Source: Candidatus Undinarchaeota archaeon
GTDB taxonomy: Archaea; Undinarchaeota; Undinarchaeia; Undinarchaeales; UBA543
DNA length: 38,839 bases
Direction: 5' to 3'
NCBI GenBank assembly: GCA_964567575.1
Contig: CAZMMZ010000010.1
Coordinates: forward strand, 1-38,839
A program made the translations under genes and the position numbers. The notes below the pieces were generated by a model that was not told the DNA's origin, ran no database searches, and saw only the letters and a program-made list of their open reading frames with translations. Shown piece by piece: positions 5,068 through 24,022 of the stretch (its first letter is position 1; the number at the start of each line of letters is the position of its first letter).

Positions 5068-5616
5068 ATGACAATAGAAGAGCACGCTGAAAAACTATCA
5101 AATCTAGCTAAAGAAGCTGTTGGACTGAAAGAACCGATTATGAAAACTGTTGAGATGATAAAAGAAGCACTAGCAAGCGGGAACAAAGTATTATCCTGTG
5201 GAAATGGTGGAAGTGCTTCAGATTCAGATCATTTTATAGGCGAACTTGTTTGCAAGTTCAGAAAAGATCGCGCTCCTCTTGCAGGAATTTCACTTAATTC
5301 TAACACTGCTGTAATAACAGCAATTGCAAATGATTATGGATATGACAAAGTTTTCGCACGGCAAGTTGAAGCTCTTGGAAAATCAGGAGATGTTTTAATT
5401 GTTATTAGCACAAGCGGAACTTCAGAAAATGTTGTTAAGGCAGCGCAGAAAGCAAAAGAACTCGGAATAAAAACAATTGCACTCACAGGAAATGTAGGAA
5501 CACTAGCTGGAGAATGTGATCACAGTATCGCGATTTCAAGCGACGATGTTCCACGAATTCAAGAATTACATGCATTTACATTGCATGAAATTTGCGAGGC
5601 ACTGGATGAAAACTGA
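5068..5616 (+). CDS. gmhA: Phosphoheptose (sedoheptulose-7-phosphate) isomerase
   Basis: CGNGGSASDSDHFIGEL, TAIANDYGYDKVFARQVEALG, ISTSG, RIQELH...H. Confidence 0.93.
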   Translation: MTIEEHAEKLSNLAKEAVGLKEPIMKTVEMIKEALASGNKVLSCGNGGSASDSDHFIGELVCKFRKDRAPLAGISLNSNTAVITAIANDYGYDKVFARQVEALGKSGDVLIVISTSGTSENVVKAAQKAKELGIKTIALTGNVGTLAGECDHSIAISSDDVPRIQELHAFTLHEICEALDEN

Positions 5617-6514
5617 AGATGTTAATGTTTTGATTATTGGAGATTTAATGCTAGACCGTTATTTAATTGGAGATAATTCTAGAATGTCTCCTGAAGCCCC
5701 AGTTCCAGTTATTAAGAAAGAAGATACAAAAGATGTTCTTGGTGGCGCAGCGAATGTTGCAAAGAATATTGTTGAACTTGGAGCAAATGCAGAAATTATT
5801 GGAGTTATTGGAAATGAAGAAGAAGGAAATGCTTTGAAAAAACTTGCAGACAAAGCTGGAATCAAAACAGATGCAATAATTATTGACAATAACAGACCAA
5901 CAACTGTGAAAAACCGAATTGTCACAAAATCTTTCCAGCAACTTTTAAGAATTGATTCTGAATACACAGAAAGTATCACACCCGCTGATGAAGAAAAGAT
6001 AATCAACACAATTAATGAGAAAGCAAAAGACGTTAGCATCATAGTGCTTTCAGACTATGCAAAAGGTGTTATTACAAAAAATATTGTTGAAGCTGCAAAA
6101 CAAACTGGAAAGAAAGTTCTTGTTGATCCTAAACCAAGTAATGCTGAGCTTTTCAAAGGTGTTGAAATTATTACTCCTAATTTAAAAGAATCGCAAGAAA
6201 TTGTTAAGAGTGATGGTGCACCTGAAGAAATCGGAAAGAAATTAGCAGAACAACTTGAATGTAAAGTTCTGATGACAATGGGAGCTGAAGGAATGATGTT
6301 AATTTCTGATAAAGTTGAGCACATCCCTATTGAAGCAAAAGAAATTTTTGATGTAACGGGTGCAGGAGATACTGTAATCGCTGTATTGAGTGTGGCGCTT
6401 GCTTCTGGTCTTAATGAATTAGAATCAGCTAAGATTGCAAACAAAGCTGCAGGAATTGTAATTGGAAAACGTCGCGTTAATGAAATTAATTTGAAGGAGG
6501 AATTAGGATTATGA
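5606..6514 (+). CDS. hldA: D-glycero-beta-D-manno-heptose-7-phosphate kinase (HldE/RfaE domain I, PfkB family)
   Basis: [58 protein letters not shown]. Likely start is ATG 5606, overlapping the gmhA end; the track's 5516 start is an upstream extension. Confidence 0.9.
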
Positions 6515-6969
6515 AAATCCTTTCACGCGACGAAGCAAAAACAAAAATCGCAGAACTGAAAAGTTCTGGAAAGAAAATTGTTTTCACAAACGGTTGTTTT
6601 GATATTTTACATATCGGACATATTCGTTATTTGAAAGAAGCTAAAGCTCTTGGAGATGTTTTAATTATTGGACTTAATTCTGATGAATCGGTTAAGAAAT
6701 TAAAAGGAGAAGGACGTCCAGTACAATCTGAACAAGAACGAGCAGAAATTCTATCTGCTCTTGAAGTAATTGATTATGTTGTAATATTTAATGAAGATAC
6801 CCCAAAAGAAATCATACTTGAATTAAAACCAGACATCCAAGCAAAAGGCGGGGATTACAAAGAAGATGAAATCCCTGAGAAAGAAGCTCTGGAAAGTTAT
6901 GGTGGAGAACTCAGAATCTTGTCAAAAGTTGATTGTGATTCAACAACAGAATTAATTTCAAAACTTTAA
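6511..6969 (+). CDS. hldC: Heptose-1-phosphate nucleotidyltransferase (HldE/RfaE domain II)
   Basis: [18 protein letters not shown] (HxGH), [20 protein letters not shown]-terminal STT. Confidence 0.93.
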
Positions 6970-6970
6970 A

Positions 6971-8116
6971 ATGTCTAAATTAAAAATCCCAATTCATATT
7001 AGAATATTTGATTTTATTTTTGGGATTAAAGCAAAAGCGTGGGATTTGATTTTCGCTAACCACAAGCCGATTTTCGGACCGTTCCAAAACATTCTTGTAA
7101 TAAATTTAATGGGACTGGGAAATATGATATTCTCAATTCCATTAATGAAAACTTTGAGAAAGAATTACCCAGAAGCTCGAATAACTTTGCTTGCATCTTA
7201 TGCACCAGTGAAAGAATTAATGGCAGAGCACAAAGATCTTGTAGACAATATTATTTTCTTCAACTCAGACGAGCACAAAGGACTTTTCAAAAAAAAGAGA
7301 TTTATGAAAAATCTTGGGAAAAGAAAATTCGATCTTTCAGTTCTGACTTATCCAAGTGGAAAATTCAGTGGAATTGCTGCTTGGTTTATTGGAGCTAAAA
7401 AACGAATTGCTGTTGAACAGAAAATCGGATTGTTCAAAACAGGTGTACTAGCAACGAGCATTGTTAGGTCTAATAGCAAACATTGTGTTGATGTGAATCT
7501 CGATATAATGAAAGCACTTCATGCAAAAGATATTGACAATAGTATTGCTTTGAATGTTCCAGAAGAATCTGTAAAGAATGCAAACGAGTTATTGAAACAA
7601 CGTGGATGGTTGAGTGGTCAGAAACTAATTGGAGTTCATACAGGATCAGTACCAGAGACCTGGTACAAACAATGGAACCAACATGGTTTTGCTGAAGCTT
7701 GCACAACTCTTGCAAAAAAGCACAATGCAAAGATTATGATTGTTGGTGGACCAGATGAACTTCGCGCTGGTGAAAGCATTCACGCAATGATGAATGAGAA
7801 ACCAATTATGTTCTTTAATAAAACAATTCCTGAAACAGCTGCACTGATTAAGAATTGTAATGTTTTCATAAGCACAGATACAGGGCCGGGGCATATGGCT
7901 TCTGCATTAGGAATCCCAGTTGTTAGTATCTTTGGACCAACTGATTCAGAGAAAGCAAAACCATATGGGAAAAATGTTATTGTTGTGCAAAGTAAATTGG
8001 AATGTGTTCCTTGTATTGATTCATTTACAGCGAATTATTTTAAATGCAAAGAAAGAAAATGCCTTGTTGAATTAGAACCTGAGAAAATTGTTGAAGCTGT
8101 TGAGAAAATGATTTAA
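6971..8116 (+). CDS. GT9 family glycosyltransferase (ADP-heptose-dependent heptosyltransferase-like)
   Basis: GLGNMIFSIPLMKTLRKNYPEARITLL, KQWNQHGF, TDTGPGHMASALGIPVVSIFGPT, C-terminal CVPC...C. Confidence 0.88.
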   Translation: MSKLKIPIHIRIFDFIFGIKAKAWDLIFANHKPIFGPFQNILVINLMGLGNMIFSIPLMKTLRKNYPEARITLLASYAPVKELMAEHKDLVDNIIFFNSDEHKGLFKKKRFMKNLGKRKFDLSVLTYPSGKFSGIAAWFIGAKKRIAVEQKIGLFKTGVLATSIVRSNSKHCVDVNLDIMKALHAKDIDNSIALNVPEESVKNANELLKQRGWLSGQKLIGVHTGSVPETWYKQWNQHGFAEACTTLAKKHNAKIMIVGGPDELRAGESIHAMMNEKPIMFFNKTIPETAALIKNCNVFISTDTGPGHMASALGIPVVSIFGPTDSEKAKPYGKNVIVVQSKLECVPCIDSFTANYFKCKERKCLVELEPEKIVEAVEKMI

Positions 8117-9735
8117 CCCTCATGCGCAAGCATTTCGGAAACTTCTTTGTAATCACCGAAATCGTGAATCTCACTCCATCCTTTATTTATTTCAAGTGAA
8201 TTAACTGTCTCACCGTTGTCAATAAGTTTCTGAATTGCAGAAGCCAAACCCATTTTCTTATCTCCAGAATCTTTGTAGACTTGCATGAGCTTCCCCATAC
8301 CGGTTTTTGAGAACAAGGATATTCCAATGAATTCATAATTTGCTTTTTCCCTGTCAAGACCTTTTCCAAGATTCAAAATTTTATTTGTGCGATTAACACT
8401 AACTACTCGGTCACCATTTAATGGTGGTTTTTCGGCAATAACCAATTCAATATCTGAACGCTCTTCTGTTTTTCTAATTGATCGGTCAACCACAATAGTA
8501 ATGTCATCTTCAGTTTTGAGAAGTTTCTCCAAAATTTCATTATCGAAAATAATATCAGCAAAAAGTATGAGATTCTTGTTTGAGTAATTGTCACCAGCTT
8601 TTTCAATTGAATCCATTATGTGGCCTTGCTCATAATTTTCATTTACAATTAAATTAATATCATCAGCAACAATGTGCTCAGCTTTGTAACCGCCAACAAC
8701 AGTGATGTCATCAACACCACAGCGCTTCAATGATTCAACACTTCTTTGCAAAATTGATTTTCCATTAACATCTAACATAGTAAGTGGTCGGTCTTCAAGA
8801 AGTTCTTTCAAAGTTGGTTCAATACTTCTATCACCAGCTGCAGGGATAATTGCTTTAATTGGTTCGTTTGTTCTAACAAATTTATCCTGATCTTCTTTGA
8901 ATTTATCCATTTCCTGTAATGCAAAGAGGTCTTGCACGCTAGCGATTTTAGGTTCAATATTAGCAAGTCCGTTTTCTTTTATTTCTGCAAGAGTTTCATT
9001 AACATGTTTTACAATTGTTCGAATTCCTTGATTAGCATAAATAACAAGTTTCACACCATATTGTTTCATCTGCTCTTCTGTGAACGTTGGATAATTTGTT
9101 GGAACCAGAACAACTGGTTTGTAATTGTCCCAAGCTTTTAGGAAATCTTCAATTTCTTTTGGATCTGATTTCTTTGAATGAATAAAAATTGCATCTGCAC
9201 CAGCATCTGCATAAGCTCTTGCTCTTTTGAGTGCTTCTTCCTGGCCCCAGCCAGCAATCAACGCTTCAACACGAGCAATAACCATAAACTCTTCTGTTTC
9301 CTGTGCATTCTTTGCAGCCATTATCTTTCCAACGAATTCTGCAATTGGTGCAAGTTCTTGTTTCCCGCCTTCAAGCAAACTATTTGCTTTTGGGAATTTC
9401 TTATCTTCAATACAAACTGCAGAAATTCCAGCATCTTCAAATTTGCGAACCATTCTGATTACATTCATTGAATTGCCGTATCCAGTATCACAGTCTACAA
9501 CAACAGGAACTGTTGTTGAATCATTCATTGAAACTGCAGCTGCAAGATGATCAGACATTGTTAGAATATTAGCATCAGGAACTGCATGAGAAGCAGAAAT
9601 TTCTAAACCAGAAGCCCAAACACCATCAAAACCATTAAGCTCTACAAGTTTTGCAGTTAACCCATTGTGAGCTCCAACGATCCGTACCAGATCTTTCTTT
9701 TCAAAAAGTTCACGAAGTTTTTCTGCTTTTCTCAT
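8113..9735 (-). CDS. pepM: Phosphoenolpyruvate mutase fused to a C-terminal nucleotidyltransferase (NTP_transf/LicC-like) domain
   Basis: GAHNGLTA, GVWASG, DCDTGYG, and the diagnostic EDKx5NS motif (EDKKFPKANS) that separates PepM from isocitrate-lyase-family paralogues. From about residue 292: KAIIPAAG...ILQRSVESL...VVGGYK...LFADIIF...EIH. Confidence 0.95.
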   Translation of the reverse strand: MRKAEKLRELFEKKDLVRIVGAHNGLTAKLVELNGFDGVWASGLEISASHAVPDANILTMSDHLAAAVSMNDSTTVPVVVDCDTGYGNSMNVIRMVRKFEDAGISAVCIEDKKFPKANSLLEGGKQELAPIAEFVGKIMAAKNAQETEEFMVIARVEALIAGWGQEEALKRARAYADAGADAIFIHSKKSDPKEIEDFLKAWDNYKPVVLVPTNYPTFTEEQMKQYGVKLVIYANQGIRTIVKHVNETLAEIKENGLANIEPKIASVQDLFALQEMDKFKEDQDKFVRTNEPIKAIIPAAGDRSIEPTLKELLEDRPLTMLDVNGKSILQRSVESLKRCGVDDITVVGGYKAEHIVADDINLIVNENYEQGHIMDSIEKAGDNYSNKNLILFADIIFDNEILEKLLKTEDDITIVVDRSIRKTEERSDIELVIAEKPPLNGDRVVSVNRTNKILNLGKGLDREKANYEFIGISLFSKTGMGKLMQVYKDSGDKKMGLASAIQKLIDNGETVNSLEINKGWSEIHDFGDYKEVSEMLAHEG

Positions 9736-9773
9736 TTTAGTAAATTTAAAGTCCTGATTTCATATTAAAAGAG

Positions 9774-10322
9774 TTATGAAAGGTATTTTCTCATACGTTC
9801 TGTGATTTCCTCTGGAGAAACTTGAACTCTGCCAACTTCTCGCTTGCCTGCTTCAACCATTACGCGGATGAACACAGGTCCTGTGTATTCACTAACTAGA
9901 GCTGATTCAAGTTCTTCAATAGTTTCTGCTTTAACTGTGGTTGTATAACCAGCAGCCTTCGCCACATTCTCAAGCTCGATTGTTGGCGATACTGTTTTCT
10001 GCGAACCAGTTGATTCGTAAACACCATTATCAATTACAATATGAATAAAATTTTCTGGTTTTAGATTTCCAATTGTTGCAAGCGCTCCCATGTTCATTAA
10101 AACATTTCCATCGCCATCAAGAACTACAACTTTCTTTTTTGAATTCAATGCAATTCCTGCGCCAATTGATGGAGCCATACCCATTGATCCAATCATGTAA
10201 AAGTTTCTTTCTGAATCTCCAGTGTCGTGAAGCTCACGACTGATGAAACCATTTGCTGAGATAACAACTTCATCTCCTTTCAAAAGAGATATGATTTTTG
10301 AAACAGCTTCTTGTGTTTTCAT
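9774..10322 (-). CDS. Phosphonopyruvate decarboxylase beta (ThDP-binding) subunit, ComE-like
   Basis: NFYMIGSMGMAPSIG, ThDP motif DGDGNVLM...IDNG, YESTGSQ. Adjacent to pepM. Confidence 0.88.
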   Translation of the reverse strand: MKTQEAVSKIISLLKGDEVVISANGFISRELHDTGDSERNFYMIGSMGMAPSIGAGIALNSKKKVVVLDGDGNVLMNMGALATIGNLKPENFIHIVIDNGVYESTGSQKTVSPTIELENVAKAAGYTTTVKAETIEELESALVSEYTGPVFIRVMVEAGKREVGRVQVSPEEITERMRKYLS

Positions 10323-10798
10323 TCTAAAGACCCCTTCTTGAAAATCAAGGCAACTGGCTTTCCAGTTTCCTCAAGTTCTGTTGTTGCTTTGTCAACATCC
10401 CCAAGTGAGTCGAATATGAAATATGGAACCCCAATTGAATCAAGGAGTTTTGTCATTGACTCGCCCATGACCCAATGCTCTGGAGCATCTTCTTTTGTTT
10501 CTCCGCGCCAACTGATTAACATCAAGATTGGAATTTTGTAAAGCAAGTCAAGTGAAGAAAGAATATTAATTGAATTTCCAAGCCCAGAGTTTTGCATAAC
10601 CATTACTGGCTTTTTACCAGCAAGCTGCGCCCCTGTGCAAAATCCCAGTGCTTCATCCTCGCGAGTGTTTGCAATGTATTTGAAATCTTCTTGTTCTAAT
10701 TTCCTAATTAGAGTTTTGAATATAGAGCACGGTACTCCCGTGTAAAAATTAAATCCTTTTTCTGTAAGCTTAGCGAGAAACTCGCCTGTGTCTACCAT
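10319..10798 (-). CDS. Phosphonopyruvate decarboxylase alpha subunit, ComD-like
   Basis: FYTGVPCSIF, NTREDEALG, MQNSGLGNSIN, LISWRG...DAPEHWVMG. Confidence 0.88.
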   Translation of the reverse strand: MVDTGEFLAKLTEKGFNFYTGVPCSIFKTLIRKLEQEDFKYIANTREDEALGFCTGAQLAGKKPVMVMQNSGLGNSINILSSLDLLYKIPILMLISWRGETKEDAPEHWVMGESMTKLLDSIGVPYFIFDSLGDVDKATTELEETGKPVALIFKKGSLE

Positions 10799-10824
10799 TG
10801 TAAGAAAACTGTTTTGAAAACTGG

Positions 10825-10863
10825 TTATTAAGCTTATGATATAGTATTCATAACCTTAAAATA
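10825..10863. promoter_or_regulatory. Divergent promoter of the phosphonate genes
   Basis: TTATTAAG at 10825-10832 (CTTAATAA on minus) is 26 nt before ATG 10798. ATAAC-CTTAAAATA ending at 10863 is 23 nt before ATG 10887. Confidence 0.55.
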
Positions 10864-10886
10864 CCCAACTCAAACACCTTCTTTTT

Positions 10887-11843
10887 ATGGAACTGTTATT
10901 GCCGAAGCACATTATATTCGAACGAGGTGCACTTAGCAAATTACCAGACTTTGTGAGCGAAGGCAAGACACTTCTAATTACTTCTAAAGGAATGCTGACC
11001 CGATGGCCAGTAGACAAGATCAAAGAGCTCATTAAAGATATTGAAATTTTTTCAGATGTAGAGCCAGAACCAAGTATGGAAACTGTTGAGAAAGCAAAAG
11101 CAATTGGTGCTGACACAGTTATTGGATTAGGTGGTGGTTCAGTTCTTGATGTTGCAAAATATGTTGCAATGGAACTCAATGCAAAGAAAATTATGATTCC
11201 AACAACTGCAGGAACTGGAAGCGAAGTAACTCATGAATCTGTTTTGAAAATTGATGGAAAAAAGAAAGGAATCAAAAATGAGAAACTTTTATCAGATGTT
11301 GCAATTGTAGATCCTGAGCTTAGCTTGACAATGCCTGAGAAACTAACAGCATGCACTGGTATTGATGCGCTCGCTCATGCAGTTGAATGTTACGAATCAA
11401 AGAAAAGTAATATCATGATAAAATTCCTTGCAAAAGAAGCAATTGACATAATCAAATTAAATCTTAAGAAAGCTATTAGCGGAGATGAGCAAGCTCGCGA
11501 GCAAATGGCTTACGCAAGTATGGTAGCTGGAATGGCTTTTGGAAATTCAGGAACTGCACTCGGGCATGCACTTTCTTATCCACTTTCAAATCAAGGAATT
11601 CCACACGGCGAAGCAGTTGCAATTGTTTTACCTTATGCTCTTGACTTTAATGGAACAGATCCTGAACTTTCACAACAAATTAAAACTATAATTAAAGAAA
11701 CTGGATTGGGAGATGTGAAAATTAAAGGAACACCTGAAGAACTTGCAGAAGTTGTATTCCCAGACAAGAGGCATCTTGATAATAATCCAAAAGAAGTTAC
11801 AAAAAAAGATCTTGTTAAAATCTTCACAGAGATATTAAAATGA
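10887..11843 (+). CDS. Iron-containing (group III) alcohol dehydrogenase, probable phosphonoacetaldehyde reductase
   Basis: GLGGGSVLDVAK, IPTTAGTGSEVT, metal ligands DALAH, GHALSY, PHGEA. Divergent from ppd/pepM. The specific function is inferred from context (PhpC/FomC-type). Confidence 0.8.
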   Translation: MELLLPKHIIFERGALSKLPDFVSEGKTLLITSKGMLTRWPVDKIKELIKDIEIFSDVEPEPSMETVEKAKAIGADTVIGLGGGSVLDVAKYVAMELNAKKIMIPTTAGTGSEVTHESVLKIDGKKKGIKNEKLLSDVAIVDPELSLTMPEKLTACTGIDALAHAVECYESKKSNIMIKFLAKEAIDIIKLNLKKAISGDEQAREQMAYASMVAGMAFGNSGTALGHALSYPLSNQGIPHGEAVAIVLPYALDFNGTDPELSQQIKTIIKETGLGDVKIKGTPEELAEVVFPDKRHLDNNPKEVTKKDLVKIFTEILK

Positions 11844-12577
11844 AAGCAGTAATTGTTGCAGCAGGAAAAGGAACTCGGCTTTATGGTAATGATGCTGAAA
11901 TCCCAAAATGCCTTACTGAAATTGCTGATGGAAAAACTCTTCTTGATTTAATGATTGCCAGTTTGAACAAGCACGGAATCACAGACATTGCAATTGTCAC
12001 AGGATGGAAAAAAGAAATGATTCAAGAAAAACTTGGAGATTCTGTAAAATACTTTTTCAATCCTTTTTACAAAACAACAAACAACATGGCTTCCTTCTGG
12101 TTTGCAACAGAATTTGTTGATGGTTCTGACTTTCTTTATTTGCATGCAGATTTGCTTTATGATGATGAACTAATCAAGAAAGCTATGGAAAGTGAAGGAG
12201 ACATTAATCTGCTTACAGACAAAGATGATTTCAATGAAGAAGCAATGAAAGTGAGATTAGATGAGCAAGGAAATTTAATTGAATCCAGTAAAGCAATCCC
12301 TCTTGATGAAGCACATGGAGAATGGACAGGAATTATAAAATTCACTGCAAATGGTTGGAATAATTTACTTCCGGAAATAGAAACTCTGCTTTTTGAAGGA
12401 AAATTCATGGACTACGACACTTCAGCTTTGACAAATCTTGCTGAAAAGAAATTCCCAATCAAAATCACAAGCACTGAAAAACTGCCTTGGATTGAAATTG
12501 ACTTCCCAGAAGACCTTGAAAGAGCGAAGAATAAAATTTATAAAACCCTAATAGGAGATAAACAAGACAATGGCTAA
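11840..12577 (+). CDS. Cytidylyltransferase of the LicC/PntC/IPCT type (NTP_transf family)
   Basis: KAVIVAAGKGTRL, IPKCL, VTGWK, YKTTNNMASFW, YLHADLLYD, EWTGIIKF, WIEIDFPEDLERA. Confidence 0.85.
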   Translation: MKAVIVAAGKGTRLYGNDAEIPKCLTEIADGKTLLDLMIASLNKHGITDIAIVTGWKKEMIQEKLGDSVKYFFNPFYKTTNNMASFWFATEFVDGSDFLYLHADLLYDDELIKKAMESEGDINLLTDKDDFNEEAMKVRLDEQGNLIESSKAIPLDEAHGEWTGIIKFTANGWNNLLPEIETLLFEGKFMDYDTSALTNLAEKKFPIKITSTEKLPWIEIDFPEDLERAKNKIYKTLIGDKQDNG

Positions 12578-14069
12578 GATCTTACTTGTATATGCAAACA
12601 GTTTTATGGATAATTTAATACCGACTGGACTGTCTATCTTATCTGCTTGTTTGAAAAAAGCCGGACATAACACTAAACTTTTTGATACAACTTTTTACAA
12701 AACAGTAGAGCGCACAGGAGATGACGCCAGAATCGAGACCCTGCAAGTCAAAAGCACAAACTTGGGAGAGTATGGTCTTAATGAAAAAAAGACCAACATG
12801 GTTGATGATTTGAAAAAAATGGTTGACGAGTATCAACCAGACCTTATTGGATTATCAATTGTTGAAACAACACAAGAAATTGGATTGAAACTTCTCAATG
12901 GTATAAAAGATTATGATATTCCAAAAATTGTTGGAGGTGTCCAAGTAACAATGGCACCAGATTATATTATTTCACAAGATTGTGTTGACATGATTTGTGT
13001 GGGAGAGGGGGAAGGAGCATTTGTTGAACTCGCAAATGCAATTGAAAAGAAAGAAGATTACACTCATATCAAAAATTTATGGATTAAAAAAGATGGTCAA
13101 ATAATAAAGAACCCACTTAGACCATTAATTGATCTTAACACAGTACCAATGCAGGATTGGACAATTTACGAGGAAAAAAGATTATACAAAGCATTTGGTG
13201 GAAAGCACTGGGTCAGTGGACCAATTGAATTGAATCGGGGATGTGTTCACAGATGCGCTTATTGCTGCAATGCAAAACTTCAAGACTTGCACAAAGGAGA
13301 TAGATTCTATGCAAGAGAAAGAAGTTTGGATAAATTCTTTGAAGAATTAAAATATAGAGTGGACAAATATGGGTTGCAATATCCTTATTTTATTGCTGAG
13401 AATTTCATGCAGGGTGGCCCTGCAAGATTTGAAGAATTCTGCAAGAGATACAAAGAATTTAAATTACCATTTTGGTCACAGATGCGAGTTGAAACAATGA
13501 ACGATGATGTGGCTCGCAAATTAAAAGAAATTGGATGTGAAAGATTAAGCATGGGAGTAGAACATGGGAATTATGAATTTAGAAAAGAAGTGCTTAATAG
13601 AAATATCACAGATGAAACAATAATTAAAGCATTCAAATCCGTGAAAGACGCGGGCTTACTGGTTTTCGCAAATAATATTGTTGGTTTCCCTGGAGAAACC
13701 AGAGAACTTTATTTTGATACTGTTGAATTGAACAGAAAACTTGGAGTTAAAAGCATCATAAATGTTTTCTGTGCATACAGAGGAACACATCTACGAGATG
13801 TTGCAGTTGAGAGAGAATACATGGACAAGGACGCTGTGGCAGGAGATTACAGACGGGATGTTAAATTAAACATGCCGCATCTTACTGCAAAGCAGGTTGA
13901 AGGTTTGCAAAGAACCTTTTTACTTTATGTTAATCTTCCGAGAGAGTATTGGCCAGAGATTGAAAAAGCAGAAAAATTCGACGAAGAAGGAAATGCAACT
14001 TTCCAAAAATTAGCAAAACTGTATTTTGAAAAGTACGAACCAGGAGTTAAAAATGTCGAACAAAACTAA
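12570..14069 (+). CDS. Cobalamin-binding radical SAM protein (class B methyltransferase-like)
   Basis: N-terminal B12-binding-type segment (PTGLSILSACLKKAGH, PDLIGLS, IVGG), RGCVHRCAYC (CxxxCxxC), MGVEHG, NIVGFPGET. Confidence 0.88.
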   Translation: MAKILLVYANSFMDNLIPTGLSILSACLKKAGHNTKLFDTTFYKTVERTGDDARIETLQVKSTNLGEYGLNEKKTNMVDDLKKMVDEYQPDLIGLSIVETTQEIGLKLLNGIKDYDIPKIVGGVQVTMAPDYIISQDCVDMICVGEGEGAFVELANAIEKKEDYTHIKNLWIKKDGQIIKNPLRPLIDLNTVPMQDWTIYEEKRLYKAFGGKHWVSGPIELNRGCVHRCAYCCNAKLQDLHKGDRFYARERSLDKFFEELKYRVDKYGLQYPYFIAENFMQGGPARFEEFCKRYKEFKLPFWSQMRVETMNDDVARKLKEIGCERLSMGVEHGNYEFRKEVLNRNITDETIIKAFKSVKDAGLLVFANNIVGFPGETRELYFDTVELNRKLGVKSIINVFCAYRGTHLRDVAVEREYMDKDAVAGDYRRDVKLNMPHLTAKQVEGLQRTFLLYVNLPREYWPEIEKAEKFDEEGNATFQKLAKLYFEKYEPGVKNVEQN

Positions 14070-14787
14070 AAAGAAAAAGAAAATTGTAATACCCGATAAA
14101 GTGGGAGATCAAGTTATTGCACATGCTATCCATAGAAAATTATCTAATAGGATAACACGGATACTGTATCATACACCAATAACACCAAATCAGGTTTCCT
14201 GGATTGGATTTATTTTATGCGCATTCGCAGCACTAATGTTTGCTTTCGGGAATTACACCTGGCTCGTTATTGGTGCCTTTGTTCTAGAACTAGGAAATAT
14301 TTTTGACATGGTTGACGGGGATTTAGCAAGAGCCAAAAAAATGTTTTCAACATATGGTCACTGGCTAGATAGTACTTTAGATGCTATTTTGGATTTTGGA
14401 ATAATCATTGCAGTAACTTATTCTGTTTGGAGAGCACGACCAGAAATGCACGTATGGTTGCTTGGAATGTTTGCAACATACTTCTTAATAGAATTCTTCA
14501 TTATGTCAAGATTTTTCATTTTGCCATATGATTTACCACATAAAGAATTCAAAAAATCATTTGGGAAAATTGGAAAAAGTAAATTTTACAATCTTTTGTA
14601 TTATACAAGACAATATCACATTAACCTGATTGCAATATTCGCAATCCTGAATCAGTTTTACATATTGCTTTGGTGCTGGGCAATCATAGGAAACCTCTAT
14701 TGGGTGGCCTATACCATCTGGCAACACAAAACAATGAGAAAAGTATTTAAAGTAAAAGAGGGGAAAGGTAAAAATCATGGCAACTAA
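14053..14787 (+). CDS. CDP-alcohol phosphotransferase family membrane protein
   Basis: ITPNQVS and the full signature DMVDGDLAR-x8-G-HWL-D-STL-D, with several hydrophobic helices. Likely start is ATG 14053. Confidence 0.9.
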   Translation: MSNKTKKKKKIVIPDKVGDQVIAHAIHRKLSNRITRILYHTPITPNQVSWIGFILCAFAALMFAFGNYTWLVIGAFVLELGNIFDMVDGDLARAKKMFSTYGHWLDSTLDAILDFGIIIAVTYSVWRARPEMHVWLLGMFATYFLIEFFIMSRFFILPYDLPHKEFKKSFGKIGKSKFYNLLYYTRQYHINLIAIFAILNQFYILLWCWAIIGNLYWVAYTIWQHKTMRKVFKVKEGKGKNHGN

Positions 14788-15598
14788 AAACGAATTATGG
14801 GACACTGAAACACATGCAGATTCATTAGATTATGAAAGTAAGCAAAAGAAAAGTCGAATAAGAAATCGACCTTTGACACAAATTCTGTTTAATCTTTACA
14901 AACCAGGAGATAAAATTCTAGATGGTGGATGTGCAACTGGTGGATACTATATGGTATTAAATGAACAGTTCCCAGGAATAGATTATAGTGGAATTGATTT
15001 GACACCTGCAATGATCAGTAGAGCAACAAAGAATTATCCTGGTGGAAAATTTAAGATATGTAGTATTGCAGAGATAACCTATGAAGATAATACTTTTGAT
15101 ACTGTTTTTAGTAGCGATGTGAGAATGCATTTGAATCAAGAAAATTGCGATAAAAGTTTAACAGAATTATACAGAGTATCTAAAAAGAATCTTGTATTAA
15201 CAACTAGATTAAAAGAAAAGGGAGAAGAAATAGTTGACATAACAAGATCCTATCAAACACAGGAAAGTGGTCACGTAGAATATAATTTGTTCCTTTTGTC
15301 AAAATATATTCAGGACATCAAAAATCTAAAACCAACACCAAAGAAAATAACAATTGTTGGAGAATATAATGTTCCGCATTATGATGTTACTCTACCAAAC
15401 AATGAGAAAAATTATATTCGCGCAGATGTTACAATAGAAAAAGGCGATGGTAGCACAACAGAAACTGTAGTAGACATACAAATAAAAAATAAATTCTTTT
15501 CATTATTGAATGAACAAAGTAAAATTTTCGTAGTGAAGGTATTAAGAAAACTTGGACTGAAACCAACACCACAGAAAATGAAGAAAGAATTGGGGTAG
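14777..15598 (+). CDS. Class I SAM-dependent methyltransferase
   Basis: Motif I KILDGGCATG, YSGIDLTPAMI, YEDNTFDTVFS. Confidence 0.85.
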   Translation: MATKNELWDTETHADSLDYESKQKKSRIRNRPLTQILFNLYKPGDKILDGGCATGGYYMVLNEQFPGIDYSGIDLTPAMISRATKNYPGGKFKICSIAEITYEDNTFDTVFSSDVRMHLNQENCDKSLTELYRVSKKNLVLTTRLKEKGEEIVDITRSYQTQESGHVEYNLFLLSKYIQDIKNLKPTPKKITIVGEYNVPHYDVTLPNNEKNYIRADVTIEKGDGSTTETVVDIQIKNKFFSLLNEQSKIFVVKVLRKLGLKPTPQKMKKELG

Positions 15599-15613: not shown

Positions 15614-17485
15614 ATGGTCAAAAAAACAATAGCGATAATAGATACACAGAAAATAACATTCTCTCATTCAGTAAGAAGAGTATACGATTTTATTAAAGAT
15701 GTTGAAAATGATTTAAAATTTAAATTTATTAAATCAAAACTAAATAATCTTAGGAAGAAATATTCTGAATTTTTACCAATTGCTTTAGATTACAAAACAA
15801 GTCAAGAATTAAAAAAAAGAGGAATATCCCACAAATGCCATTGTGAAATAACAGAAGAATTTCTTGATCAAGAAGCATGGGATAGGGCTTATAAATTTTT
15901 TAAAGAAATGACCCCAGTAATTTCAAGTATTAATGAGATTATGACTTATTCTGGTCAGAAAATATGGGAACTCAATGAGGCCGAGGTATGGCGGTTTTAT
16001 CTGATACCAATCATAAAAACAATTGATTCTGCTTTAAAAATATTTGAAGAGGAAGATGTTGAACGATTAATAATTTATGATAACACTAGCATTTATCAAA
16101 AAACTTTCGAACTTGTAGCTAAAAATTTGGAAATAGAAGTAATTGATAAAACTCCAGCAAAAACAAAAATTGAAAACTCTTTGGAAAGAACTGCAATAAA
16201 TGTTATAACAAAAAAGAGTGGAGATACTTTGTTAGATTTACTTAAACCAGAAGCAAAAGATAAACCAAAATCAACAAAGAAAAAGATTGTGATTTTTTAT
16301 GATCACTGCACATTAAGAAATGTTTTACCATGGGCAAGCCAGATATCTGAAAACCATGATAAGATATGTGTTGGAATTGATTCAAAAGAAAAAGTAGAAG
16401 AAGAAATAAAAAAAGCAGGAATGCCTTATGAAAAATTACAGAATTATGCCACAGAAGAAACTATACAAAAATTAAAACAAATAAAAGAGAAACTAGCAGA
16501 CATTAATGAAAAAGCAAAATTAAGCAATTTCAAATATCGGGGAATTGATTTATGGCCAATTTCAAAAAAGATGTTTTCATTCCTTTTCAATGAACGTTTT
16601 CTAGAAACTTACATAAGAATTGAAACATTCAATAAAATGCTTGAATATGAAAAACCAGATCTTGTAATTACTGTAGATGATTGGAGCAGATACCCAAACA
16701 CATTATTAAAAATTTGCAAGCAGAAGCAAATCAAAACACTTGCTGTTAGATATGGAGTTTATTCTCAAGTACCAAAAGGTTACGAAATAACAGCGGACCG
16801 GGTTTTAGTATATGGAGAAGAATCAAAAAAGATTCTTACAATGTATGGACAAAACATAGGCAAGGCAGAAGTAACTGGACAAGCAGATGCAGATGGAACC
16901 GCAAATGCTCAGAAAGAAATTGAGATGTTTGAAAAATTAGGAATAGACAAAAACAAGAAACTTATTGTTTTTGCAGGAACTTGTGTTCCTGAAAACGGAA
17001 CCTACCACCCATATGATATTTTCTACAAAACAATAAAGAAATATCCAGAAGAACAAATAATAGTAAAAACTCATCCAGCAGAAACTCCGTATCTGCATGA
17101 AAAATTCATAAAGAAATATTCAATAAAAAATGTAAAGATAACAAATGATTATTTATTTGAATTATTGAAAAACTGTGACATGATAATTAATTTAACTTCA
17201 ACTGTCGCCACAGAAGCAATGACTTATGGGAAAAAAATAATTCACATTAATACACTAAAAGCACCAGACTATAGTTTCCCTCCAGAGAATGAAAATTATT
17301 TAAAATTAGTTTCAACTGAGGAAGAGTTGGATAAAACATTAAAGACTTTTTTAGAACAGCCAAATGAGGACAAAGAAGAAATAATTGAAGTATCAAAACA
17401 AACCATAAAAGAAAAGGGAGAACCAGTATACGCCGCCATAGTAAAAAATATAGAAGAGATGCTTGATACGACTCAAATTACATAA
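15614..17485 (+). CDS. Large putative GT-B-fold transferase (capsule-biosynthesis / TagF-like / sialyltransferase-like C-terminal half)
   Basis: EKPDLVITVDD, QIKTLAVRYG, ADRVLVYGE, EVTGQ, IIVKTHPAE, CDMIINLTSTVATEAMTYGKK. HP and S(T)xxxEA motifs resemble CMP/CDP-donor transferases. The N-terminal ~220 aa are unrecognised. Confidence 0.55.
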   Translation: MVKKTIAIIDTQKITFSHSVRRVYDFIKDVENDLKFKFIKSKLNNLRKKYSEFLPIALDYKTSQELKKRGISHKCHCEITEEFLDQEAWDRAYKFFKEMTPVISSINEIMTYSGQKIWELNEAEVWRFYLIPIIKTIDSALKIFEEEDVERLIIYDNTSIYQKTFELVAKNLEIEVIDKTPAKTKIENSLERTAINVITKKSGDTLLDLLKPEAKDKPKSTKKKIVIFYDHCTLRNVLPWASQISENHDKICVGIDSKEKVEEEIKKAGMPYEKLQNYATEETIQKLKQIKEKLADINEKAKLSNFKYRGIDLWPISKKMFSFLFNERFLETYIRIETFNKMLEYEKPDLVITVDDWSRYPNTLLKICKQKQIKTLAVRYGVYSQVPKGYEITADRVLVYGEESKKILTMYGQNIGKAEVTGQADADGTANAQKEIEMFEKLGIDKNKKLIVFAGTCVPENGTYHPYDIFYKTIKKYPEEQIIVKTHPAETPYLHEKFIKKYSIKNVKITNDYLFELLKNCDMIINLTSTVATEAMTYGKKIIHINTLKAPDYSFPPENENYLKLVSTEEELDKTLKTFLEQPNEDKEEIIEVSKQTIKEKGEPVYAAIVKNIEEMLDTTQIT

Positions 17486-17518: not shown

Positions 17519-18499
17519 ATGGTTACAAAAGTAGATTCTGCATTTCATCAGATAAAAGAAACTAAACAAGAAGATACTCCGGAGTACAAAGAGTACCGGA
17601 GACGTTGGTATGAAAATCCAAAAACTCATACTGTTGGAGAATTCCCAATACATCTTGACTTAGAGGGAACTCCATCTTGTAATCTGAAATGTGTGTTTTG
17701 CTATCAATCTTTTGATCCACTAGAAAAGGGATTCATGGAAATGGATTTGTTTAAGAAATGTATTGATGAAGGAGTTGAGAAAGGATTATGTTCAATAAAA
17801 TTACAATACAGAGGAGAAACCCTGTTACATCCAAAAGTTGTTGAGATGGTTCAATATGCAAAAGACAAAGGCGTTTTAGAAGTCATGTTCAATACAAATG
17901 GAATGTTGTTAACAGAAGAGCTGTCAAGGAAATTGATAAACGCTGGAATAGATAAAATTATTTTTTCAATAGAAGGAACTGATGCAGAAACATATGAAAA
18001 ACTTAGAATTGGTGCAAAATGGGAAACAGTATTAAATAATATTAAAGCTTTGAAACGTGTGAAAGAAGAACTTGGTTCAGAAAAACCAATAACAAGAGCT
18101 CAGATGGTAGCAACCCCTGAACTTAAGGATAAAGTAGATGAGTATGCAGAATTTTGGAGTCAATATGTTGACAATATTGGAATAGATGAATATCTTGATT
18201 ACAGACAAGACATGAGCACACCAACAATTTCTAAAGAATTTGCATGTCCACAATTTTGGCAAAGACTTATTGTATTCTGGGATGGAACAATTATTCCTTG
18301 CTGTGAAGAGAGACACGGAAAACTCGCAGTTGGAAATGCCAAAACAGAAAGTATTTCAGATGTGTGGAAAGGTCCAAAAATGCAAAAGCTAAGAGAAAAG
18401 CATCTGAGTGGAGAATCTCATACAATACCATCATGTGCCACATGTATTTCAAGGAAACACATTATTGATAATCATATTAACAAAAAAGAGAGCAGCTAG
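17519..18499 (+). CDS. Radical SAM/SPASM (twitch) domain protein
   Basis: CNLKCVFC, RGETLLHP, FNTNGMLL, FSIEG, C-terminal CPQFW..DGTIIPCC..GN..DVW..CATC. Confidence 0.9.
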   Translation: MVTKVDSAFHQIKETKQEDTPEYKEYRRRWYENPKTHTVGEFPIHLDLEGTPSCNLKCVFCYQSFDPLEKGFMEMDLFKKCIDEGVEKGLCSIKLQYRGETLLHPKVVEMVQYAKDKGVLEVMFNTNGMLLTEELSRKLINAGIDKIIFSIEGTDAETYEKLRIGAKWETVLNNIKALKRVKEELGSEKPITRAQMVATPELKDKVDEYAEFWSQYVDNIGIDEYLDYRQDMSTPTISKEFACPQFWQRLIVFWDGTIIPCCEERHGKLAVGNAKTESISDVWKGPKMQKLREKHLSGESHTIPSCATCISRKHIIDNHINKKESS

Positions 18500-18501
18500 A
18501 C

Positions 18502-20058
18502 ATGACTAATGTTAGGGTTATTCCAAGACTTGATATAAAAGGACCTAACTTGGTTAAAGGGATTAGGCTTGAGGGTTTGCGGGTTCTTGGAAAACCAGAG
18601 GATTTTGCACTAAATTATTATAAAAATGGCGCAGATGAATTATTGTATATAGATGTTGTTGCAAGCCTATATGAAAGAAACAACCTCAGAGAAATTGTTG
18701 AAAAAACTGCAAAGAAGCTCCACATACCGATGACTGTTGGGGGAGGGATAAGAACAATAAAGGACATAAAAGAAATTCTTCGCGCTGGAGCCGACAAAGT
18801 TGCGATAAATACTGCTGCTGTAAAGAATCCAAAAATAATAACAGAGGGAGCAAATGCATTTGGATCACAATGTATTGTAGGATCAATTGAAGCTAAGAAA
18901 AAAATAGACGGAACTTATGAAGCATATATTGATAATGGAAGAGAAAAAACAGGGAAAGATGTTTTTGAATGGGCGAAAGAACTTGTAGATCTTGGGGCAG
19001 GAGAGCTTTTAATCACTTCAGTTGATAAAGAAGGAACAGGAAAAGGATACGACAACGAACTGACAGCAAAAATATCTAAGTCTGTCAATGTTCCTGTTAT
19101 TGCCTGTGGAGGAGCAGGAAAAATAGAAGACGTGGTTGATGTAATAAAAAAAGGAAAAGCAGATGCTGTCTGTGCTGCATCTCTATTTCATTATAATTAT
19201 TTGGATTCTCTTAGAAAAGAAGAGGGTTATGATGAAGAAGGAAATGTTGAATTTCTTAAAACAAAGTCACAATTTTTGAAAGGAATGATCACTCCTGCAG
19301 GAATAATGGATGTTAAATCTGAGATGACTAATGCTGGAATAGATTGCAGAATAGATAAGAGAGCAAATGGAACAAAAGATCTGGTAAAAAAGAATACAAA
19401 ACTAAAAGTAGTTGTGATTGATTACGGCCTTTGTAATTTATTCAGCATAGAAAAAGCATTGAAACATATTGGAGTATATCCAATAATAACCGGTGATGAG
19501 AAAATTATAGAAAAAGCAGATCGTTTGATTCTACCAGGAGTTGGGGCTTTTGCAGAAGCCATGAAAAATATGCGAGATAAAAAATTAATTGAACCAATTA
19601 AAAAAGCAGTTGAAAAAGGGACACCGCTTCTTGGTATTTGTCTAGGAATGCAAATTTTGATGGATGAAAGTGAAGAATTTGGAAAGCACCCTGGCCTTGG
19701 ACTTATCCCAGGAAAAGTAATTAGGTTTAAGATGTCTGAAGAAAAAAACAAAGTCAAGATTCCCCAAATAGGATGGAATTCAATTAACGTGCCAGAGAAT
19801 ACCACTTGGAATGGAAGCATTCTTGAAAAAGTGGATCCAGGAGCGTTCTTTTATTTTGTTCACTCATATATTGTTGTTCCAGAAAATAAAAAGAATGTGC
19901 TGGCAACAACATTTTATGGGAAAGATAATTTCTGTTCAGTGGTTAGGAAAAATAATGTTTTTGGGTGTCAATCTCATCCAGAAAGAAGTGGGGAAGTTGG
20001 GTTAAATATTTATAGACAATTCATCTTTGAAAACAATGAGGGAATAAAAAATGACTGA
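18502..20058 (+). CDS. HisF-like cyclase fused to a HisH-like glutaminase (glycan acetamidino-modification paralogue, AglZ/AglY or WbuZ/WbuY type)
   Basis: N-terminal RVIPRLDIKG, PMTVGGGIR, GADKVAINT, LITSVDKEGT. C-terminal IDYGLCN, ILPGVGAF, LGICLGMQ, YFVHSY, QSHPERS. One uninterrupted frame. Confidence 0.88.
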   Translation: MTNVRVIPRLDIKGPNLVKGIRLEGLRVLGKPEDFALNYYKNGADELLYIDVVASLYERNNLREIVEKTAKKLHIPMTVGGGIRTIKDIKEILRAGADKVAINTAAVKNPKIITEGANAFGSQCIVGSIEAKKKIDGTYEAYIDNGREKTGKDVFEWAKELVDLGAGELLITSVDKEGTGKGYDNELTAKISKSVNVPVIACGGAGKIEDVVDVIKKGKADAVCAASLFHYNYLDSLRKEEGYDEEGNVEFLKTKSQFLKGMITPAGIMDVKSEMTNAGIDCRIDKRANGTKDLVKKNTKLKVVVIDYGLCNLFSIEKALKHIGVYPIITGDEKIIEKADRLILPGVGAFAEAMKNMRDKKLIEPIKKAVEKGTPLLGICLGMQILMDESEEFGKHPGLGLIPGKVIRFKMSEEKNKVKIPQIGWNSINVPENTTWNGSILEKVDPGAFFYFVHSYIVVPENKKNVLATTFYGKDNFCSVVRKNNVFGCQSHPERSGEVGLNIYRQFIFENNEGIKND

Positions 20059-23130: not shown

Positions 23131-24022
23131 AAAAAGAGTGGTTTTCATAACAAGTATTCGCTGGGGAAAAGCGTGCCTAGAAAAAACCATAGAAAATAAT
23201 AATGCAGAAGTTGTTGCAATTTTCACAACAGAAAAACCTGAGAAATCAGCAGGATACGAACCTCTTGATGATATTGCAAAAAAACACAATATTCCTCTTT
23301 TCAAAATCAAACACATAAATAATGAAATAGAAAAAATAAGAGAACTTAAACCAGATTGGATTTTTGCTCTTGGATGGTCGCAGATTCTTTCTGAAGACTT
23401 TTTCAGTATTCCAACTGGAGGATTAATTGGTGGACATCCAACAATGCTTCCAAAAAACAGAGGACGAGCTCCACTAACTTGGGCAATAATCAAAGGTCTT
23501 GAAAAAACAGGATTCACTTTCTTCCATCTTGCAAAAGAAGTTGATGATGGAGATATTCTTGCACAAGAAGAAATAGAAATTGGACAAGATGATACTGTGA
23601 ATGATCTGTTAGACAAAGTCACAGAAACTGCAGGAAATCTTTTAGAAAAAACATTACCAGAACTTTTCTCAGAAAATCCACCACACATAAAGCAAAACCC
23701 AGAAGAGGCAACGTATTGGCCAAAGCGAACTCCAGAAGATGGAATTATAGATTGGAACAAAACAACAAAAGAACTTGATGCTTGGGTAAGAGCATTAACA
23801 AAACCATACCCTGGTGCTTTCACATTCTATAATGGGGAGAAAATAGTAATCTGGAAGGCAAGTTCAAAAGAATTAAAAGGGAATCCTGGAGAAATATTAG
23901 AAGAAAGTGATGGAAAAATAACTGTTGGAACAAAAGACAGTAGCATACAGATAGAAGAATATGAACCAGAAATAAATGCACAAATTCATAATCATTTTAA
24001 AAATGAGGTATTAGAAAAATGA
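23123..24022 (+). CDS. Formyltransferase (Fmt-like, probable sugar N-formyltransferase)
   Basis: GWSQIL, GGHPTMLPKNRGRAP, TGFTFF, EVDDGDI, KRTPEDGIIDW, VRALTKPYPGAF. GTG start overlaps the neuB end. Confidence 0.88.
   Translation: MSKKRVVFITSIRWGKACLEKTIENNNAEVVAIFTTEKPEKSAGYEPLDDIAKKHNIPLFKIKHINNEIEKIRELKPDWIFALGWSQILSEDFFSIPTGGLIGGHPTMLPKNRGRAPLTWAIIKGLEKTGFTFFHLAKEVDDGDILAQEEIEIGQDDTVNDLLDKVTETAGNLLEKTLPELFSENPPHIKQNPEEATYWPKRTPEDGIIDWNKTTKELDAWVRALTKPYPGAFTFYNGEKIVIWKASSKELKGNPGEILEESDGKITVGTKDSSIQIEEYEPEINAQIHNHFKNEVLEK

Follow-up and report, generated by a model that had tools for sequence, protein, structure and literature searches.

The 38,839-nucleotide contig CAZMMZ010000010.1 (assembly GCA_964567575.1), the whole of which we call the window, carries at positions 8113-15598 a cluster of genes predicted to make, activate and transfer a phosphonate. 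We propose that this cluster serves cell-envelope phosphonate tailoring, in which 2-hydroxyethylphosphonate (HEP) would be made, joined to cytidine monophosphate (CMP) to give CMP-HEP, C-methylated by a radical S-adenosylmethionine (SAM) enzyme and transferred at the membrane; we put the chances of this reading a little above even. Its product, methylation and acceptor are what we infer from gene identities, motifs, gene order and comparative patterns. The eight genes named in the initial annotation, which was made from the sequence alone, were all recovered at their positions by Pfam and NCBIfam, but that annotation missed the fusion carried by the PEP mutase, the Fom1/Fom3 precedent from fosfomycin biosynthesis and a GT-B fold transferase gene that follows.

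In the pathway that we propose, PepM would convert phosphoenolpyruvate (PEP) to phosphonopyruvate, a split phosphonopyruvate decarboxylase (Ppd) would turn this into phosphonoacetaldehyde (PnAA), and an iron-dependent alcohol dehydrogenase (Fe-ADH) would reduce the aldehyde to HEP. A stand-alone PntC-type enzyme would then join HEP and CMP, after which a cobalamin (B12)-dependent radical SAM enzyme would modify the CMP-bound phosphonate, most likely by C-methylation to CMP-2-hydroxypropylphosphonate, by analogy with Fom3. A CMP-phosphonate is an analogue of a CDP-alcohol, and a CDP-alcohol phosphotransferase would move its phosphonyl group to a membrane alcohol, either a lipid or a lipid-linked glycan, with release of CMP. 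A class I methyltransferase and the GT-B protein could add further decoration within the heptose/nonulosonic-acid glycan island in which the cluster lies. The order in which activation, modification and transfer follow one another is part of the proposal.

The cluster is arranged as two divergent operons on either side of an 88-bp AT-rich gap (Table 1), as had been annotated. Judging from its sequence, this gap is presumed to hold the promoters of both operons, and a TATA-like TTAAAATA lies ~24 bp ahead of the ADH start codon. The plus-strand genes overlap throughout: ADH and cytidylyltransferase by 4 nt, being translationally coupled, cytidylyltransferase and radical SAM by 8 nt, radical SAM and CDP-alcohol phosphotransferase by 44 nt, and CDP-alcohol phosphotransferase and methyltransferase by 11 nt.

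Table 1. Features of the phosphonate cluster and the gene that follows it, in window coordinates
Feature	Position	Strand	Basis
Fused C-terminal PF12804 nucleotidyltransferase domain	8113..8865	-	NTP_transf_3, E 3e-10
PEP mutase domain (residues 1 to ~290 of 540-aa fusion)	8866..9735	-	PF13714, TIGR02320, EDKKFPKANS
Ppd beta (TPP-binding C-terminal) subunit	9774..10322	-	TPP_enzyme_C, TIGR03297; adjoins PepM
Ppd alpha (N-terminal) subunit	10319..10798	-	TPP_enzyme_N, TIGR03297
Divergent intergenic region, 88 bp, AT-rich	10799..10886	.	Sequence read; presumed promoters of both operons
Group III Fe-ADH, candidate phosphonoacetaldehyde reductase (PnAA to HEP)	10887..11843	+	Fe-ADH and ADH_Fe_C
PntC/LicC-type cytidylyltransferase, candidate HEP cytidylyltransferase	11840..12577	+	NTP_transferase, NTP_transf_3; Tde-PntC 6pd1
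Class B (cobalamin-dependent) radical SAM enzyme, candidate CMP-phosphonate C-methyltransferase	12570..14069	+	B12-binding PF02310 and Radical_SAM PF04055
CDP-alcohol phosphotransferase family membrane protein, candidate phosphonyl transferase	14026..14787	+	PF01066; AF2299 4o6m
Class I SAM methyltransferase	14777..15598	+	Methyltransf_31/25/11
623-aa soluble GT-B fold transferase, uncharacterised family	15614..17485	+	Weak Capsule_synth, Epimerase_2 and GT1 matches

Proposed synthesis and activation of 2-hydroxyethylphosphonate

The gene at 8113-9735 on the minus strand encodes a 540-aa fusion of PepM with a nucleotidyltransferase (NTase) domain of family PF12804 at its C-terminus. The PepM part matches PF13714 (E 3e-60) and lies barely above the TIGR02320 cut-off of 319.55 bits (319.9 bits; 322.2 bits in a genome-wide search). 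[quoted passage not shown] Fusion of PepM to an NTase is the commonest PepM architecture, accounting for 33% of Ppm proteins (PMC6697681), and the arrangement seen here is common to hundreds of homologues from Nanoarchaeota, Woesearchaeota, Omnitrophota and others. The fused NTase domain matches LicC and PntC in the PDB weakly, carries AAGDRS in place of the GxGTRL of active LicC/PntC enzymes, and has Phe at the position of Glu104 in Tde-PntC, a residue it shares with other PepM-linked fused-type domains (L098). From these substitutions, it may not be a conventional cytidylyltransferase.

Ppd is encoded as two subunits directly upstream of PepM. Against the Ppd model TIGR03297, the alpha half scores 127 bits (model positions 1-156) and the beta half 200 bits (positions 172-360), each by itself below the cut-off of 312.5. 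An alternative is that the two halves form a sulfopyruvate decarboxylase and that the cluster serves something other than, or besides, phosphonate synthesis, since alpha scores 147.2 bits against sulfopyruvate decarboxylase alpha (ComD; cut-off 147.95) and beta 192 bits against ComE (cut-off 221.5). Both subunits nevertheless fall below the ComDE cut-offs, a bona fide PepM with the EDKx5NS motif adjoins them in the same operon, and the PepM-decarboxylase adjacency is kept in 16 other loci besides the window. We find the sulfopyruvate alternative scarcely credible.

The candidate PnAA reductase retains the Asp/His/His/His metal ligands in an alignment with TM0920 (1vhd), and its homologues occur in six other PepM loci. 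Every open reading frame (ORF) of at least 150 aa in the window could be assigned to some other family, so the window lacks an AepZ-type transaminase for aminoethylphosphonate (AEP) as well as an MpnS- or HepD-like protein, as the initial annotation had stated. One 408-aa ORF without a Pfam match was considered as a candidate for MpnS/HepD and was identified as a WbuX N-acetyl-sugar amidotransferase. In the genome as a whole, the best AepZ-like match reached 200 bits against a cut-off of 360.8. Because the Fe-ADH is coupled to the cytidylyltransferase and neither an AEP transaminase nor MpnS is present, HEP, rather than AEP or methylphosphonate (MPn), is the likely intermediate.

The substrate signature of the cytidylyltransferase points the same way. 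This stand-alone LicC-like NTase is encoded within a few genes of PepM, and its best PDB match is the Tde-PntC domain of Treponema denticola Tde1415 (6pd1; E 3e-13 over residues 2-239), followed by LicC (1jyk). Two glutamates of Tde-PntC, Glu104 and Glu196, are in contact with the AEP amine (PMC6697681). The former aligns with His102 of the window enzyme, and the latter with Asp193 in a stretch that is poorly aligned; the Glu196 position was also considered as a second signature and showed no clear pattern. By these residues the enzyme would be PntC-like, not PntC sensu stricto, which fits a substrate other than AEP.

Across homologues, the residue at the Glu104 position follows the neighbouring genes. 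All Fe-ADH-linked enzymes have His (window, L004, L015, L006, L019 and L165), representing five independent lineages when the window and L004 are counted as one genus. L165 was drawn from an independent set of 80 metagenome relatives, and His occurs in none of the other 79. Where a class V aminotransferase is linked instead, Asp or Glu is found in 13 of 14 cases (5/6 genome loci and 8/8 metagenome loci), and in the 71 metagenome relatives linked to neither gene Asn, Tyr and Asp predominate. Since His versus Asp/Glu splits ADH-linked from aminotransferase-linked homologues, this covariation supports a cytidylyltransferase that would read the 2-substituent of ethylphosphonate, with a hydroxy compound (HEP), not AEP, as the probable substrate here. 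The preference for HEP over AEP or MPn in the initial annotation is thus upheld by the coupling of ADH and cytidylyltransferase and by the His at the amine-binding Glu position.

The B12 radical SAM enzyme and its family

Between activation and transfer stands the radical SAM gene, whose protein has the invariant cysteines C225, C229 and C232 (CX3CX2C). The nearest solved folds to its AlphaFold2 (AF2) model, which has a predicted local distance difference test score (pLDDT) of 91.9, are TsrM, MgmA/QCMT (9CCB is QCMT; PMC12931638), AprD4, CysS, OxsB and TokK, and four of these six are methylases. The modelled fold is class B, with mostly methylases among its solved members, and by itself does not settle the chemistry. 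The score against the PhpK-family model TIGR04479 is 76.7 bits (cut-off 600), and NCBIfam holds no model specific to Fom3. The genome encodes two more proteins with B12-binding domains (G000:C1:2045-2422 and G000:C4:38618-38986, in open frames of 780 and 446 aa); cobalamin is therefore in use, and the cell must obtain it.

The enzyme's family is dense, numbering over 120 cluster representatives at no less than 45% identity, and we surveyed the gene neighbourhoods of 80 related genome loci together with the window. PepM lies within 10 kb of the radical SAM gene in 17 of these 81 loci, the window included. Seven of the 17 are of HEP type, with an Fe-ADH (window, L004, L015, L006, L043, L019 and L050), and six are of AEP type, with a class V aminotransferase by Pfam (L005, L007, L011, L012, L020 and L031). 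PepM-linked orthologues occur in DPANN, Omnitrophota, Planctomycetota and Methanosarcinales, and several HEP-type loci carry a Fom1-type CTP_transf_like-PepM fusion (L006). The order NTase-radical SAM-CDP-alcohol phosphotransferase recurs in DPANN and Omnitrophota, and a Planctomycetia locus has the same gene set with the NTase after the radical SAM gene. The initial annotation knew of no described pathway with this gene set in a streamlined archaeon; the gene set nevertheless has precedents, as the Fom1/Fom3 logic and the common PepM-NTase fusion are published and the module occurs in at least 16 other loci of several phyla.

Some PepM clusters from DPANN, Omnitrophota and Planctomycetia (L005, L006, L007, L011, L012, L015 and L020) hold two to four B12 radical SAM genes each. 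The extra paralogues are 24-34% identical to the orthologue, a hint that radical chemistry modifies the phosphonate or its carrier in several ways.

In a quick maximum-likelihood tree, the window protein fell in PepM-linked clades of 21 rows, in which HEP and AEP contexts are interleaved; where PepM is missing from a row, the contig is nearly always short or the flank truncated. A sister clade of 48 rows (support 99) comprises Scalindua, other Planctomycetota, Alpha- and Gammaproteobacteria and Rokubacteria (loci within L013-L081, e.g. L023:9141-11467, L046:4246-12365 and L037:3356-12477). Genes of this clade adjoin an AP_endonuc_2 TIM barrel, not PepM, often with a molybdopterin oxidoreductase, and further neighbours are an LPG_synthase_TM protein or a 3-hydroxyisobutyrate-dehydrogenase-like enzyme. 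In L046 and L058 the AP_endonuc_2 set is itself joined to PepM-NTase and Ppd, and three of five tested genomes from this clade encode a bona fide fused PepM elsewhere. The family is strongly, not exclusively, tied to phosphonate genes. Loci L037, L038 and L051 (Brocadiia/Planctomycetota) combine the AP_endonuc_2 barrel, radical SAM and LPG_synthase_TM genes with a Ppd-like decarboxylase, a class V aminotransferase, an NTase, an NTase-CDP-alcohol phosphotransferase fusion and a protein of the isocitrate/isopropylmalate dehydrogenase family.

Variation among close relatives of the host offers a second view of the radical SAM gene. Within the window's genus all three genomes have PepM, compared with none of the 14 other genomes of the phylum that were searched (72-98% complete); the cluster is thus a genus-level acquisition. 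One of the genus members (G018, locus L004) has the gene order of the window. The sister species G017 keeps SIS-PfkB-CTP_transf_like-GT9-PepM/NTase-Ppd and ADH-NTase-CDP-alcohol phosphotransferase-GT-B, with overlapping junctions, in an operon without the radical SAM and methyltransferase genes (L087, G017:C9:38000-57900, about 6390-10595). No radical SAM orthologue was found elsewhere in the G017 genome, where the best match is 27% identical. Because this operon omits the gene, the radical SAM reaction would be an optional tailoring step between activation and transfer. The flanking enzymes of the window and G017 are 75-90% identical, compared with 47% for the CDP-alcohol phosphotransferase and 46% for the GT-B protein; the low identity of the former would fit adaptation to a changed donor, or a gene swapped in together with the radical SAM gene.

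It is also possible that unmethylated HEP is activated and transferred and that the radical SAM enzyme performs some other chemistry, such as a rearrangement, dehydration or oxidation, or acts on a sugar of the neighbouring glycan. The G017 operon, which works without the gene, is in keeping with this, as is the presence in the same array of a SPASM radical SAM gene and many sugar-modifying genes. Class B includes the non-methylases OxsB, BchE and HpnJ, the last two of which are the best NCBIfam matches of the window enzyme, and its best PDB sequence match is the core of AprD4, a dehydratase. Most members of the wider family adjoin the AP_endonuc_2 barrel and the molybdopterin oxidoreductase instead of PepM (47 of the 81 loci have the barrel in its place), and PepM was undetectable in two of the five tested genomes of that clade (G001 and G002). 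The likeness to Fom3 is one of putative role, context and class B fold, and since orthologues occur in both AEP and HEP clusters, the chemistry need not copy the C2 methylation of Fom3. These matches and contexts count against the proposed methylation, and two features of the early enzymes count against the pathway as a whole: the Ppd halves score about equally as sulfopyruvate decarboxylase, and the Fe-ADH is short (318 aa) and reaches 148.3 bits against Phn_Fe-ADH (TIGR03405), whose cut-off is 423.7. On the other side, the radical SAM gene sits exactly between, and overlaps, the genes for the cytidylyltransferase and the CDP-alcohol phosphotransferase, and the order NTase-radical SAM, with or without the phosphotransferase, recurs across phyla regardless of the surrounding glycan genes. 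Most of the solved structural neighbours are methylases, and Fom3, the sole published enzyme in such a genomic role, is a C-methylase. We therefore hold another chemistry to be unlikely, albeit a possibility to be taken seriously, and keep C-methylation of the CMP-bound phosphonate as the working proposal.

The proposed transfer to the envelope, and the host with its glycan genes

The candidate phosphonyl transferase matches PF01066 with 47.4 bits (cut-off 22), has hydrophobic segments and finds its best PDB match in AF2299 (4o6m, E 3e-23). Aligned with AF2299, it shows an intact family signature, DMVDGDLAR(x8)GHWLDSTLD (DxxDGxxAR(x8)GxxxDxxxD). Its start codon may be the ATG at 14053. A second member of the family, a housekeeping CDP-alcohol phosphotransferase of 202 aa, is encoded on contig C2.

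The transferase could run in the other direction, with CDP-archaeol as donor and the hydroxyl of HEP or of 2-hydroxypropylphosphonate (HPP) as acceptor, to give archaetidyl-hydroxyethylphosphonate; the cytidylyltransferases would then serve other steps. The genome carries a CarS-like CDP-archaeol synthase gene, the nearest named families include archaetidylinositol-phosphate synthase, which follows such a logic, and HEP resembles glycerol-3-phosphate in its free hydroxyl and terminal phosph(on)ate. We disfavour this route because AEP-type clusters (L007, L011 and L012), whose product has no hydroxyl, also carry a homologous CDP-alcohol phosphotransferase after the radical SAM gene. The PntC-type enzyme with its substrate-correlated residue, two genes upstream, and the separate housekeeping transferase on C2 speak against it as well, and we consider it quite improbable.

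With a CMP-phosphonate as the donor, as we propose, the acceptor could equally be a lipid-linked glycan of the surrounding island or a lipid, the latter giving a phosphonolipid. Undinarchaeales are thought to depend on outside lipids (PMC7414124), which makes a remodelled phosphonolipid attractive. In the most specific form of this idea, CMP-2-hydroxypropylphosphonate would be used in a Kennedy-type reaction on an isoprenoid lipid alcohol, yielding a methylated-HEP phosphonolipid in a lipid-scavenging DPANN archaeon; we regard this form as speculative and rather unlikely. A teichoic-acid-like polymer of HEP, poly(HEP), was considered and set aside for want of support.

The best PDB matches of the class I methyltransferase are phosphoethanolamine N-methyltransferases, over the core only. 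These matches were uninformative on a role as a DhpI-like phosphonate O-methyltransferase, and that candidate assignment was dropped. In L020, a domain similar to this methyltransferase follows the radical SAM gene. The GT-B gene comes directly after the CDP-alcohol phosphotransferase gene in both variants of the cluster in the genus, and the cluster unit very probably extends to it (15614-17485). Its protein gives partial matches to TIGR04396 and BFO_1060, and its AF2 model (pLDDT 90) is nearest to UDP-GlcNAc 2-epimerases and GT-B transferases. K485, H487 and P488 (a K-x-H-P motif) are conserved, and the protein belongs to a family of 1,824 representatives. Orthologues show borderline Glyphos_transf matches, and a TagF-like CDP-glycerol transferase was considered. 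The Pfam signal for this is borderline and confined to orthologues, and the fold lies nearest to UDP-GlcNAc 2-epimerases and to generic GT-B enzymes. Its donor could be either a CMP-phosphonate or a CMP-nonulosonate.

The host is a marine Undinarchaeota (DPANN) archaeon. The source genome is 745 kb, is 82% complete and has an archaeal small-subunit (SSU) rRNA fragment; the window is a complete contig of 38.8 kb. The contig thus comes from an Undinarchaeota archaeon and not from a bacterial lineage, and the small genome and the content of the gene array agree with the streamlined archaeal host and glycan island of the initial annotation. The closest related locus, in a Candidatus Undinarchaeota metagenome-assembled genome, has identical gene order and a radical SAM protein 88% identical to that of the window. 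Besides the probable source, 13 metagenome runs (seawater, marine and vent) belonging to at least ten studies contain near-identical DNA, and no RNA run is among those listed.

The plus-strand cluster genes head a co-directional array of 20 genes that extends to 31823. Further along, this array encodes the GT-B transferase, a SPASM radical SAM enzyme, WbuZ/WbuY (a HisF-HisH fusion), WbuX, a set of nonulosonic-acid enzymes (PseF-, NeuB-, NeuC-, PseB- and PseC/LegC-like), a formyltransferase, FolD, a flippase and a GT-C enzyme, and genes for ADP-heptose and a GT9 heptosyltransferase lie upstream of the cluster. This setting bears on whether the product might be a soluble, secreted phosphonate natural product of antibiotic type, not an envelope decoration. 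The first four activities do match the early fosfomycin pathway (PMC6697681, PMC8158854), but the window lacks a FomD-type CMP hydrolase, an HppE epoxidase, a peptide ligase and an exporter, the genes head a glycan array with a flippase and a GT-C enzyme, and a membrane CDP-alcohol phosphotransferase comes directly after them. A secreted product is, in our view, very improbable, and envelope tailoring remains our preferred reading.

Several neighbouring genes are of interest in their own right. Genes of ADP-heptose type at 5068-8116 encode a SIS isomerase, a PfkB kinase, a CTP_transf_like adenylyltransferase and the GT9 heptosyltransferase, here in an archaeal host, and the other end of the contig (35121-36986) encodes a second SIS protein, a GmhB-like HAD phosphatase and a transaldolase. 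At 18502-21277, HisF and HisH are joined in a single 518-aa WbuZ/WbuY-like protein followed by the WbuX N-acetyl-sugar amidotransferase, which is probably machinery for an acetamidino sugar. The formyltransferase and FolD (methylene-tetrahydrofolate dehydrogenase/cyclohydrolase) lie within the nonulosonic-acid genes (23123-24022 and 26457-27305) and suggest an N-formylated sugar with its own supply of formyl-tetrahydrofolate. The SPASM radical SAM protein (17519-18499) has homologues 41-44% identical in L061, L063, L076 and L087:701-1597. In Nealsonbacteria and Methanoregulaceae, at loci without PepM, these homologues adjoin members of the B12 radical SAM family, and they occur also in the sister species.

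Significance and comparison with known systems

Much of the dissolved organic phosphorus in the sea is phosphonate, with HEP esters among the main forms, and the producers and the steps that follow HEP are poorly known (PMC8931226, PMC9381506). The cluster offers a concrete, testable route from HEP to the envelope in a DPANN archaeon; we found no published DPANN phosphonate pathway, and our literature searches returned no description of PepM in DPANN, of this radical SAM family or of the gene module. It also defines a B12 radical SAM family, widespread and uncharacterised, that is tied to CMP-phosphonates in HEP and AEP clusters alike, and it supplies a candidate specificity residue (His versus Asp/Glu) for predicting from sequence whether PntC-like enzymes use HEP or AEP. 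The operons of the window and the sister species, one having and one lacking the radical SAM gene, form a natural pair to compare. Should methylation prove true, a common head group at the surface would be 2-hydroxypropylphosphonate, which is otherwise known only from fosfomycin synthesis, as an intermediate. Should the phosphonolipid reading prove true as well, the product would be the first archaeal phosphonolipid, with a head group (methylated HEP) unreported in nature, and the methyl group would be turned on or off from species to species within a single genus by the presence or absence of the radical SAM gene.

The early steps resemble those of fosfomycin biosynthesis in Streptomyces (Fom1, Fom2, FomC and Fom3). 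In that pathway the Fom1 cytidylyltransferase makes CMP-HEP, which Fom3 methylates (PMC6697681, PMC8158854). The two systems share five activities, as predicted for the window (PMC6697681, PMC8158854): a PepM-NTase fusion, Ppd, a group III ADH that yields HEP, a cytidylyltransferase that activates it and, next to the latter, a class B radical SAM enzyme. They differ in the fused domain, which is a C-terminal PF12804 domain in the window and an N-terminal PF01467 domain in Fom1, and the window has in addition a stand-alone PntC-type enzyme, a glycan-island setting and an archaeal host. The FomD hydrolase and HppE epoxidase are absent from the window, and a CDP-alcohol phosphotransferase stands in their place. 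Because of this replacement, the CMP-phosphonate is probably consumed as a donor, not hydrolysed.

Activation resembles the Pnt pathway, in which PntC (Ari1348, Tde1415; Rice et al. 2019) activates a phosphonate with CMP for attachment to the cell surface. Both have a PepM-PF12804 fusion with a separate LicC-like cytidylyltransferase at a distance of one or two genes, the characterised PntCs likewise being separate enzymes beside the fusion, and Tde-PntC is the closest solved relative of the window enzyme. The PntCs characterised so far act on AEP, however, and are encoded alongside an AEP transaminase and LicD-like transferases. The window has an ADH in place of the transaminase, His in place of Glu104, an inserted radical SAM gene and a transferase of the CDP-alcohol phosphotransferase family.

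The methylphosphonate cluster of Nitrosopumilus maritimus is likewise archaeal and marine, proceeds through PepM, Ppd and ADH to HEP and has polysaccharide genes adjacent; its presumed products are phosphonate esters carried on exopolysaccharide (PMC9381506). That cluster continues with MpnS, and neither a radical SAM nor a CDP-alcohol phosphotransferase step is part of it as described. Since the window lacks MpnS and HepD, HEP would not be cleaved to methylphosphonate here. In the phosphonoglycans of Glycomyces and Stackebrandtia, HEP is an end group esterified to surface glycans, according to the account of Yu et al. 2014 given in PMC13576164. Those hosts are bacterial, and the likeness noted here is one of the product. 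We know of no methylated HEP head group or CDP-alcohol phosphotransferase step from the work on these organisms.

For the transfer step, the closest solved relatives are AF2299 (4o6m) and IPCT/DIPPS (4mnd), both of Archaeoglobus fulgidus, with E-values of 3e-23 and 5e-12, respectively, and all share the full DxxDGxxAR..G..D..D signature. DIPPS is paired with the cytidylyltransferase that makes its CDP-alcohol donor. The window protein differs in having no cytosolic N-terminal domain and in its predicted donor, a CMP-phosphonate as opposed to CDP-inositol or CDP-glycerol. Our literature searches found no description of a CDP-alcohol phosphotransferase that acts on CMP-phosphonates, nor of its combination with the other steps proposed here. 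The early steps follow the logic of fosfomycin biosynthesis, and activation follows that of the Pnt pathway, with HEP in place of AEP.

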